NCBI RefSeq assembly: GCF_003334335.1 | Contig: NZ_QOWQ01000040.1 | DNA: 39,682 nucleotides | Origin: Escherichia coli | Lineage (GTDB): Bacteria; Pseudomonadota; Gammaproteobacteria; Enterobacterales; Enterobacteriaceae | Direction: 5' to 3' (one strand) | Part shown: piece by piece, positions 33,001 through 39,503 of the stretch | How the letters are laid out: every line of letters begins with the position of its first letter | Numbering within the stretch: position 1 is the stretch's first letter | Position numbers: made by a program

Positions 33001-36000
33001 AATTCGAAACAATGATAAAACCCCAGTTCGCTGACAGAATCTATTTCTCCAATTGTTTACCCGTTGATCCCACAAGTACCAGACCAACCTATTTTGGTGA
33101 TACCGATGGCTCAGTCGGTGCAGTTTTGTTCGCGCTTTTCGCAACGGGACATTTGGGAATCATGGCTGAAGGAGAAAATTTCCTTAGCCAGTTGCTTAAT
33201 ATAGAAGATGAAGTTCTCAACGTATTGCTAAGGGAGAACTTTAATGAGCAACTTAACACTAATGTTAATACAATAATCAGTATCCTGAACAGAAGAGACA
33301 TTATTTTAGAAAGTCTTCAGCCTTATTTAGTTATTAATAAAGACGCTGTGACGCCATGTACGTTTCTGGGCGACCAAACCGGCGATCGATTTAGCAATAT
33401 CTGTGGTGATCAATTTATCATCGATTTGTTAAAACGCATAATGAGTATCAATGAAAATGTTCATGTATTAGCTGGAAATCATGAAACGAATTGCAATGGT
33501 AACTATATGCAGAACTTCACGCGTATGAAACCACTCGATGAGGATACCTACTCTGGGATAAAAGATTATCCTGTATGTTTCTATGACCCCAAATACAAAA
33601 TAATGGCAAATCATCATGGGATAACTTTTGATGATCAGCGAAAACGTTACATTATAGGACCGATAACAGTCTCTATTGATGAAATGACCAATGCTCTCGA
33701 TCCGGTCGAATTAGCGGCAATTATCAATAAAAAGCATCATGCTATAATTAATGGCAAAAAGTTTAAAACTAGCCGGGCTATCTCTTGTCGATCCTTTAAT
33801 CGTTATTTTTCTGTTTCGACAGATTACAGACCTAAACTTGAAGCACTATTAGCATGTTCACAAATGTTAGGTATAAATCAAGTTGTTGCACATAACGGAA
33901 ATGGTGGAAGAGAACGCATAGGCGAAACGGGGACAGTTTTAGGTCTTAACGCCCGTGACAGTAAACATGCTGGAAGAATGTTCAGCATGCATAATTGCCA
34001 AATTAACCCTGGTGCAGGGCCTGAGATAACCACTCCCTGGAAGTCTTACCAGCATGAAAAAAACAGAAATGGACTTATGCCTTTGATTAGAAGGCGCACA
34101 ATGTTACAGCTCTGAACCATAGACAACATGAATATTAATGTTACTATCTGGTTGAGACTGTTGATAAAACGTAAAAAGGAATGCTCTGTTCCTGCAACTG
34201 AACAGGCGTGAAACGCTATCCAACAGGATGGATACCGTTTTGTCAGCCAGTTTTATAGATCACACTTATGAGTATGCGTGTTTCATTTACGGCCAGGAAT
34301 GCTGATGATGACAACATTACTACCCGTTTTCACTAAGCCTTCCCCGTTGGCGCTCAATGCTCTGCGCGCTGGTCGTATTTGCCGTTTCCTTCTTATCCCG
34401 GATGGAAGAATCCGCTGAACGTCGTTCGGCGGCAGTTGTAACACGCGTCGTTTGCTTACAGGGATTATGGCGGGTCGATTATGGATAAGAGTAAGCGCCA
34501 TCTGGCGTGGTGGGTTGTCGGGTTACTCGCGGTGGCGGCTATCGTGGCGTGGTGGCTGTTGCGCCCGGCAGGTGTGCCGGAAGGCTTTGCTGTCAGTAAT
34601 GGGCGCATTGAAGCGACGGAAGTGGATATTGCCAGCAAAATTGCCGGGCGTATCGACACCATTCTGGTGAAAGAAGGCCAGTTTGTTCGCGAAGGTGAAG
34701 TGCTGGCGAAGATGGATACTCGCGTGTTGCAGGAACAGCGACTGGAAGCCATCGCGCAAATCAAAGAGGCACAAAGCGCCGTTGCTGCCGCGCAGGCTTT
34801 GCTGGAGCAACGACAAAGCGAAACTCGTGCCGCACAGTCGCTGGTTAATCAACGCCAGGCAGAACTGGACTCCGTAGCAAAACGTCATACGCGTTCCCGT
34901 TCACTGGCCCAACGAGGGGCTATTTCTGCGCAACAGCTGGATGACGATCGCGCCGCCGCTGAGAGCGCCCGAGCTGCGCTGGAATCGGCGAAAGCTCAGG
35001 TATCGGCTTCTAAAGCGGCTATAGAAGCGGCACGCACCAATATCATTCAGGCGCAAACCCGCGTCGAAGCGGCACAAGCCACTGAACGGCGCATTGCCGC
35101 AGATATCGATGACAGCGAACTGAAAGCCCCGCGTGACGGACGCGTGCAGTATCGGGTTGCCGAGCCAGGCGAAGTGCTGGCGGCAGGCGGTCGGGTGCTG
35201 AATATGGTCGATCTCAGCGACGTCTATATGACTTTCTTCCTGCCAACCGAACAGGCGGGCACGCTGAAACTGGGCGGTGAAGCCCGGCTGATCCTCGATG
35301 CCGCGCCAGATCTGCGTATTCCTGCAACCATCAGTTTTGTCGCCAGTGTCGCCCAGTTCACGCCAAAAACCGTCGAAACCAGCGATGAACGGCTGAAACT
35401 GATGTTCCGCGTCAAAGCGCGTATCCCACCGGAATTACTCCAGCAGCATCTGGAATATGTCAAAACCGGTTTGCCGGGCGTAGCGTGGGTGCGGGTGAAT
35501 GAAGAACTTCCGTGGCCTGACGACCTCGTGGTGAGGTTGCCGCAATGACGCATCTGGAACTGGTTCCCGTCCCGCCTGTCGCGCAACTGGCGGGCGTGAG
35601 CCAGCATTATGGAAAAACCGTTGCGCTGAACAATATCACTCTCGATATTCCGGCCCGCTGTATGGTCGGGCTGATTGGCCCGGACGGCGTCGGGAAGTCG
35701 AGCTTGTTGTCGTTGATTTCCGGTGCCCGCGTCATTGAACAGGGCAATGTGATGGTGCTGGGCGGCGATATGCGCGACCCGAAGCATCGCCGCGACGTCT
35801 GCCCGCGCATCGCCTGGATGCCGCAGGGGCTGGGCAAAAACCTCTACCACACCTTGTCGGTGTATGAAAACGTCGATTTTTTCGCTCGCCTGTTCGGTCA
35901 CGACAAAGCGGAGCGGGAAGTGCGAATCAATGAGCTGCTGACCAGCACCGGGTTAGCACCGTTTCGCGATCGTCCGGCAGGGAAACTCTCCGGCGGGATG

Positions 36001-39000: not shown

Positions 39001-39503
39001 TGCTGATGGTGAAAGGTGTACTGGGCGTACCGATTGAAGGCTCGATCCCGCTGTTTATGCTGGGCGTGGCGCTCAGTCTGTTTGCCACCACGTCAATCGG
39101 CATTTTTATGGGGACGATAGCGCGTTCAATGCCGCAACTGGGGCTGCTGGTGATTCTGGTGCTGCTGCCGCTGCAAATGCTTTCCGGTGGTTCCACGCCG
39201 CGCGAAAGTATGCCGCAGATGGTGCAGGACATTATGCTGACCATGCCGACGACACACTTTGTTAGCCTCGCGCAGGCCATCCTCTACCGGGGTGCCGGAT
39301 TCGAAATCGTCTGGCCGCAGTTTCTGACGCTGATGGCAATTGGCGGCGCATTTTTCACCATTGCGCTGCTGCGATTCAGGAAGACGATTGGGACAATGGC
39401 GTAAATACAATTGCCCGATGCGTAAGCTTATAGGGACTACGCATCGGTGCAATTTATTGAATTTTAGTTGTTTTTAGGCCGGATAAGGCGTTTATGAACT
39501 GAC

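Follow-up and report, generated by a model that had tools for sequence, protein, structure and literature searches.

The closest described relative of the system examined here is YbhGFSR of Escherichia coli, a putative tripartite ATP-binding cassette (ABC) pump of the ABC-2 type encoded by cecR-ybhG-ybhF-ybhS-ybhR, in which an adaptor gene is followed by genes for an ATPase with tandem nucleotide-binding domains (NBDs) and two ABC-2 permeases. Drug and cation phenotypes have been reported for YbhGFSR (PMC7190983). A 2021 review places YbhFSR under the MacB/FtsX family and calls ybhF the adaptor gene; this is contradicted by Pfam and by the K-12 annotation, which give ABC-2 permeases and YbhG as the adaptor. 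Here, we analyzed yhiI-rbbA-yhhJ (34481-39404, plus strand) in a 39,682-nucleotide (nt) stretch of E. coli DNA (contig NZ_QOWQ01000040.1 of assembly GCF_003334335.1; hereafter the window). Few orphan ABC systems are left in E. coli, and this is one of them; its gene name says translation while its anatomy says export. We consider it likely, on the basis of sequence, predicted fold, paralogy and synteny, that the three products form a tripartite, ATP-driven efflux pump that spans the envelope and belongs to the ABC-2 (type V) class.

The locus is known and already annotated. It holds three co-oriented open reading frames (ORFs) of 355, 911 and 374-375 codons that translate cleanly, and the gene names proposed in an earlier sequence-only reading agree with the annotation. 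Many E. coli chromosomes match the segment 34100-39682 at 100% identity, and at least 80% of the locus is present in 5414 of 5426 complete E. coli genomes. What the present analysis adds is a conserved asymmetry of the ATP sites, an association with outer-membrane factor (OMF) genes, and a map from promoter to terminal hairpin; the category of system is unchanged.

The operon is collinear with ybhG-ybhF-ybhS-ybhR. YhiI is 30% identical to YbhG, the N-terminal half of RbbA 40-41% identical to YbhF (NBD for NBD), the RbbA membrane domain 32% identical to YbhS, and YhhJ 24% identical to YbhR over its full length. To judge from these alignments, yhiI-rbbA-yhhJ is a paralog of ybhGFSR in which RbbA is in effect a YbhF-YbhS fusion. 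The label "atypical" given to the system in the sequence-only reading is therefore relative: it is a fused version of YbhGFSR with an NCBIfam equivalog model of its own (NF033858), against which RbbA scores 1596.6 bits over residues 12-910 (cutoff 1050).

RbbA carries two ABC_tran domains (residues 28-176 and 293-436) and one ABC2_membrane_3 domain (569-903) according to Pfam, and YhhJ is a stand-alone ABC2_membrane_3 protein (25-364), 28% identical to the RbbA membrane domain. The AlphaFold2 model of RbbA (predicted local distance difference test score, pLDDT, 89; predicted template modeling score 0.80) places NBD1 at 13-260 and NBD2 at 275-515, followed by a disordered linker (516-539), a connecting helix, a first transmembrane helix, a periplasmic alpha/beta domain and five further transmembrane helices. 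Hydropathy and the model give both membrane subunits a periplasmic domain of ~120-130 residues. The best Foldseek match of RbbA is the type V lipid exporter ABCH-9C, its ATPase half is matched better by fused tandem NBDs such as DppD than by EttA, and its best match by sequence in the PDB is ABCA3 (1e-69). DrrA and DrrB models match RbbA and YhhJ. The NBD motifs and membrane domains characteristic of an ABC-2/type V exporter were thus found by Pfam, AlphaFold2 and Foldseek. The gene content (two NBDs and one membrane domain in RbbA, one membrane domain in YhhJ) is paired in 76 of 76 related loci. Membership in the MacB/FtsX (type VII) family was considered and rejected: neither RbbA nor YhhJ has an FtsX or MacB_PCD Pfam domain, and six transmembrane helices are predicted.

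Adaptors of tripartite pumps combine lipoyl, beta-barrel and alpha-hairpin elements and are encoded beside the transporter, and YhiI has all of these features. It matches HlyD_3, HlyD_D23 and Biotin_lipoyl_2 in Pfam. Its AlphaFold2 model, built from an alignment of 68 homologs from related loci (pLDDT 94), shows an N-terminal transmembrane helix (3-27), lipoyl and beta-barrel domains, and an alpha-hairpin of 64- and 62-residue helices (81-144/150-211), with no membrane-proximal domain. At 1.5 Å per residue, the hairpin is estimated to be ~95 Å long. Among solved structures, those closest to the model are EmrA within EmrAB-TolC (E 1e-21) and MacA within MacAB-TolC, and the top structural matches are all adaptors that dock to TolC or OprM. 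YhiI, as modeled, is an inner-membrane-anchored, EmrA-like periplasmic adaptor. The layout described in the sequence-only reading, with an NBD-NBD-ABC-2 RbbA, a separate ABC-2 permease and an adaptor, is borne out by Pfam and the predicted folds.

We then compared the neighborhoods of 80 related loci from several proteobacterial classes, Myxococcota, Lentisphaerae and one metagenome-assembled genome labeled Alistipes. These relatives were drawn from 50%-cluster representatives and genome loci; a word-indexed search with RbbA returned only near-identical E. coli sequences. Direct neighbors were counted where the contig leaves room for them (68 loci upstream, 76 downstream), and OMF genes were counted in the flanks of 69 loci. 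An adaptor gene lies directly upstream of the rbbA homolog in 68/68 loci and an ABC-2 permease gene directly downstream in 76/76, and the membrane domain is fused to the ATPase in all 80. An OMF gene was found in the flanks of 19 of the 69 loci (18 NodT-type, one TolC-family), making this the largest family in the clustering of flanking ORFs. In most cases the OMF gene comes right before the cluster in the same orientation, and in several cases it shares 4 nt with the adaptor gene. A NodT-type representative scores 382 bits on TIGR01845 (cutoff 210), and the TolC-family gene 311 bits on TIGR01844 (cutoff 225). Among the lines of evidence obtained here, this association of genes argues most strongly for a tripartite system. 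Besides the OMF genes the flanks are heterogeneous, with a few TetR regulators, and no recurring biosynthetic cluster in them offers a clue to the substrate.

Anatomy, predicted folds, paralogy and synteny thus support a tripartite pump, as the sequence-only reading had suggested; annotation and the OMF genes of the relatives point the same way. In the mechanism we propose, the three genes and a small leader ORF, yhiY, would form one transcription unit, and stop/start overlaps together with Shine-Dalgarno (SD) sites inside the upstream gene would keep the synthesis of the three parts linked. RbbA would supply both ATPase domains, as an internal head-to-tail pair, and one membrane domain; YhhJ would supply the second, giving a presumed 1:1 pseudo-heterodimer. 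YhiI, held in the inner membrane, would form a periplasmic tube whose long hairpin reaches the OMF, by analogy with EmrA and MacA, and in E. coli this OMF would be encoded elsewhere and would most plausibly be TolC. By analogy of fold with ABCA, ABCG and ABCH exporters, the pump would pick up its cargo in the inner membrane or periplasm, and this cargo is expected to be a small molecule of amphipathic or lipid-like character. We infer assembly, stoichiometry, OMF partner, transport direction and substrate class from such analogies. The model predicts an OMF partner (TolC or another), an RbbA:YhhJ ratio of 1:1 and a single catalytic ATP site; attenuation in the leader is possible.

Asymmetry of the two ATP sites

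We compared the motifs of the two NBDs across 76 fused RbbA homologs. The Walker B Asp-Glu pairs of both NBDs are invariant. The NBD1 signature LSGGMKQK is conserved in 71-76 of the homologs and the Thr-His of the NBD2 H-loop in all 76. On the other side, the NBD2 signature is LPLGxRQR in 70-75/76, and the position of the NBD1 H-loop histidine is occupied by Ala or Ser in 75/76. This pattern implies one canonical and one degenerate composite site. The canonical site combines the NBD2 Walker A, Walker B and H-loop with the NBD1 signature, and the degenerate site combines the NBD1 H-loop lacking its histidine with the NBD2 LPLGxRQR signature. The claim of two complete NBDs made in the sequence-only reading thus holds for Walker A and Walker B, present in both domains, but not for the NBD2 signature (LPLGIRQ in the window) or the NBD1 H-loop (Ala for His), which are degenerate. 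By analogy with what is established for heterodimeric ABC exporters, the canonical site of RbbA is probably catalytic, and hydrolysis there probably drives the cycle.

A tripartite pump weighed against other readings

Several points weigh against a tripartite pump. The E. coli operon has no OMF gene, and ~72% of the related loci lack an adjacent one, so that an OMF-independent mode is possible. Assembly and stoichiometry of the complex rest on analogy; coupling of the three genes is deduced from their layout, and the RNA folds at the junctions are unremarkable. The literature searched contains no transport activity, substrate or drug phenotype for yhiI-rbbA-yhhJ and no data on YhiI and TolC. 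It likewise turned up no paper naming a substrate. In addition, truncated RbbA without its membrane domain shifts the yields of non-canonical peptides 0.6- to 2.1-fold in vitro (PMC12096078).

The missing OMF gene could mean that an ABC-2 exporter operates here with its adaptor but no OMF. It would then bring an envelope component (for example a lipid, a glycolipid or a lipopeptide) to the periplasm or outer membrane and would not expel xenobiotics through TolC. ABCH-9C and ABCA, the nearest relatives by fold, are lipid movers, and the periplasmic domains on both membrane subunits fit such a role. In three Stutzerimonas/Pseudomonas loci (L022, L038 and L069), a gene for a predicted lipoprotein of ~200 amino acids (aa) with a lipobox (LSACS or LAACS) lies 112-144 nt upstream of the adaptor gene; the copy in L022 has no NCBIfam match. 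On the other hand, the OMF is the largest flanking family and its gene is often joined to the operon by the 4-nt overlap, and the long hairpin of YhiI is typical of TolC-docking adaptors, as its top matches are. The AcrAB, EmrAB and MacAB systems of E. coli have no OMF gene in their operons, yet use TolC. We regard an OMF-free exporter as unlikely.

RbbA is named as a ribosome-associated ATPase, and it may primarily or additionally be a ribosome-dependent ATPase of elongation, with the membrane domain as a tether and the operon partners secondary. A 2025 Nucleic Acids Research paper cites earlier work on E-site binding and poly-Phe stimulation (PMC12096078). With truncated RbbA, its reconstituted system gave an enhancement of 1.3- to 2.1-fold and, for some substrates, an inhibition (0.6- to 0.7-fold). 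The tandem NBDs are superficially like those of ABC-F proteins, and EttA is among the Foldseek matches of RbbA. The effects seen in vitro were, however, obtained with truncated RbbA at micromolar concentration and are of about the magnitude seen on adding any ABC-F protein (PMC12096078).

Sequence and gene order also speak against this role. RbbA is 25% identical to EttA (95 bits), against 40-41% to YbhF (231+144 bits), and the NCBIfam NBD families that lead after the RbbA model itself are of the DrrA, NodI and GldA types. The distance from the first Walker B to the second Walker A is 135 residues in RbbA and 167 in EttA, and only ~15 residues between the NBDs are unstructured in the AlphaFold2 model, which leaves no room for a linker of the ABC-F type. 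RbbA is thus not a soluble protein free of a membrane domain, has no long linker, and has NBDs that are not closer to ABC-F. Its membrane domain is fused in every related locus, with adaptor and permease wherever the contig allows. Full-length RbbA-mCherry was seen all across the membrane, and inner-membrane preparations were used to follow RbbA-3xFLAG (PMC6788730); this membrane-wide distribution of the full-length protein is also unfavorable to a ribosome factor. Concerns about images led in June 2025 to the retraction of the only in vivo paper on a link between RbbA, the ribosome and YhjD (Babu et al., 2011, PLoS One). The gene and protein names used in databases continue to derive from the ribosome account. 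The name "ribosome-associated ATPase" fits the anatomy of RbbA poorly, and a ribosome interaction, though it may be real, explains neither this anatomy nor the synteny; we judge a principal or additional function in elongation to be improbable.

Expression signals, gene junctions and surroundings

The features of the operon are collected in Table 1. A constitutive RpoD promoter was assigned to "yhiI-rbbA-yhhJ" by genomic SELEX (systematic evolution of ligands by exponential enrichment; Shimada 2014, PMC3946193), and its hexamers are identical to those of the promoter-like site upstream of yhiY. A simple promoter scan of 34000-39682 found no promoter-like site inside the operon, and terminator-like matches inside the genes are at background (8 found, 6.2 expected). 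The hairpin with a T-rich tail that follows the yhhJ stop was missed by the simple terminator scan because its loop is long; it may serve as the intrinsic terminator of the operon.

Table 1. Features of the yhiI-rbbA-yhhJ region (positions in the window).
Feature	Position	Strand	Basis or details
Sigma-70 promoter-like site	34120-34147	+	TAGACA-16-TACTAT; only such match in 34000-39682
yhiY, small ORF (37 aa)	34305-34418	+	RefSeq, K-12; 62 nt upstream of yhiI
yhiI (355 aa)	34481-35548	+	RefSeq: HlyD family secretion protein
YhiI alpha-hairpin codons (aa 81-211), predicted OMF-docking element	34721-35113	+	AlphaFold2 model
Junction 1	35530-35548	+	SD GGTGAGG 35530-35536 inside yhiI; ATGA 35545-35548
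rbbA (911 aa)	35545-38280	+	RefSeq: ribosome-associated ATPase/putative transporter RbbA
RbbA NBD1 (aa 13-260)	35581-36324	+	Walker A GPDGVGKS, signature LSGGMKQK, Walker B LLILDE
RbbA NBD1 H-loop without His	within 35581-36324	+	T206-A207-Y208
RbbA NBD2 (aa 275-515)	36367-37089	+	Walker A GSNGCGKS, degenerate signature LPLGIRQR, Walker B MLILDE, H-loop T465-H466
RbbA membrane domain (aa 540-905)	37162-38259	+	Pfam, AlphaFold2 secondary structure, hydropathy; periplasmic domain aa 586-705
Junction 2	38270-38282	+	SD AGGAGG 38270-38275 in last rbbA codons; stop TGA 38278-38280; yhhJ ATG 38280 (alternative 38277)
yhhJ (374 aa)	38280-39404	+	RefSeq: ABC transporter permease
Hairpin and T-rich tail after yhhJ stop, candidate intrinsic terminator	39409-39454	+	Inverted repeat I1; minimum free energy -25.6 kcal/mol, z -3.9

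Attenuation in the leader upstream of yhiI is plausible because yhiY-yhiI was listed among upstream ORFs with an RNA 3' end <200 nt downstream, and because a yhiI 5' fusion rose >2-fold in the rho R66S mutant (Adams 2021, PMC7815308); yhiY may have a regulatory role in it. The leader RNA (34150-34480) folds somewhat better than its shuffles (z -2.5), and an Rfam scan of 34000-39682 at E <= 1 gave no matches. The yhiY peptide is 86% identical in E. albertii. In Citrobacter werkmanii (L005), nucleotide blocks are kept around the yhiY start and near its end, and a 23-nt insertion shifts these two blocks out of frame with each other, so that what is conserved may be RNA or DNA and not the peptide. 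It is conceivable that pump and ribosome functions are linked and that the operon is a translation-stress-responsive efflux system with an ATPase that reads the state of the ribosome, in which the NBDs of membrane RbbA engage stalled or membrane-proximal ribosomes while yhiY and Rho-dependent attenuation sense the stress, for example so as to expel a ribosome-targeting compound; we give this combination very little credence.

Gene overlaps of 4 nt or 1 nt are common in bacterial operons and unremarkable on their own. At the first junction, the rbbA ATG and the yhiI TGA overlap by 4 nt, exactly as claimed in the sequence-only reading, and the SD site lies 8 nt upstream. At the second junction (38270-38285, AGGAGGGATGATGCGC), yhhJ has two in-frame ATGs, at 38277 and 38280, and either overlaps the rbbA stop. 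RefSeq and the K-12 annotation use 38280 (374 aa, 1-nt overlap with rbbA), which is also the better fit to the AGGAGG, with a spacing of 4 nt against 1 nt for 38277. The overlap of stop and start described earlier for this junction is real and 38277-38280 is ATGA, but the string quoted as ATGATGA reads ATGATGC.

Both junctions are conserved among the related loci. The adaptor and RbbA genes overlap by 4 nt in 41 of 68 loci, and the distance between the RbbA and permease genes is -4 to +4 nt in 63 of 76. RbbA nearly always ends in K-Q-E-x-stop (CAG-GAG), with the terminal K-Q-E codons kept in 53-70 of 76 homologs, and this ending creates an AGGAG-like SD site only a few bases ahead of the permease gene. 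Folding of the RNA around the three starts gave z-scores of -0.2 to +0.8, which speak neither for nor against coupling. Taken together, the overlaps, the internal SD sites and their conservation suggest that translation of the three genes is coupled. Although short overlaps are common in compact bacterial genomes and the junction folds have no special structure, it is scarcely credible that the genes are merely adjacent, expressed and acting independently with incidental overlaps, given an order kept in all 68 and 76 loci with tight junctions across distant taxa, a single mapped promoter with no internal promoter-like site, SD sites inside the upstream genes, and the same layout in the paralog ybhGFSR.

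Ahead of the yhhJ start, its reading frame runs without a stop for 84 nt (38196-38280), a stretch that overlaps the end of rbbA. Proteins that appear to be RbbA-YhhJ fusions (1272-1286 aa, 1-4 members each) were considered as natural fusions and rejected: eight of ten are frameshifts in the last ~25 rbbA codons into the yhhJ frame, and the other two look like small deletions that keep the frame. Errors in sequencing or assembly, or sporadic mutation, probably account for them.

The mean GC content of E. coli is ~51%, below that of the operon (53-59%). A sharp step in GC occurs in 30000-34500, where the two upstream genes of the YhiJ/YhiL family have 34-38%. Many homologs from alpha-, beta- and deltaproteobacteria share 66-70% identity with RbbA, and the Providencia protein, at 76%, is barely closer. 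Past the operon (39470-39682 onward; 11470-17583 in locus L001), the minus strand carries the ISEc1-family transposase gene yhhI, a HEAT-repeat pseudogene, yhhH and rhsB, so the operon borders a region of Rhs and insertion-sequence elements.

The literature on these genes includes several correlative observations, some of which may hint at a role. Expression of yhiH (rbbA) rises with the minimal inhibitory concentration of ciprofloxacin in heteroresistant Salmonella subclones; a genome-wide association study of E. coli found an association between single-nucleotide polymorphisms in rbbA and resistance to microcin C; yhiI is among the genomic SELEX targets of PgrR, a regulator of peptidoglycan recycling; and the locus was lost within a large deletion during evolution under paraquat.

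Relation to known transport systems and ABC-F proteins

YbhGFSR resembles the operon in detail as well as in gene order: its junctions also overlap (8 and 8 nt), and YbhF likewise has a degenerate NBD2 signature (LPLGFKQ) and an NBD1 H-loop lacking the histidine. It differs in that RbbA joins the ATPase and a YbhS-like permease in a single polypeptide, and in the spacing between the NBDs, which is 197 residues in YbhF and a shorter 135 in RbbA. YbhGFSR has a gene for a TetR regulator, whereas the yhiI-rbbA-yhhJ locus has none and carries the yhiY leader ORF instead. The two also differ in their published record, since the drug and cation phenotypes of YbhGFSR have no counterpart for yhiI-rbbA-yhhJ in the literature searched.

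ABC-F proteins (EttA, Uup, YbiT and YheS) share with RbbA two NBDs per polypeptide and a published ribosome-related activity in vitro. Unlike them, RbbA has a membrane domain and no long linker, and its operon encodes the parts of a transporter.

EmrAB-TolC and MacAB-TolC share the adaptor fold: in EmrA and MacA, as in YhiI, an N-terminal transmembrane anchor is combined with a long alpha-hairpin and with lipoyl and beta-barrel domains. These two adaptors are the best matches of YhiI in both sequence and structure, with an identity of only 18-20%. The inner-membrane partner differs, being the major facilitator superfamily protein EmrB or a MacB/FtsX-type protein in those pumps and a predicted ABC-2 heterodimer here. 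The type V families (DrrAB, ABCA, ABCG and ABCH) match the system in NBD sequence and in the fold of the membrane domain. The operon departs from these families in the domain order of RbbA, with two NBDs ahead of one membrane domain and a second membrane domain encoded separately, in its dedicated periplasmic adaptor, and in its setting in a Gram-negative envelope.

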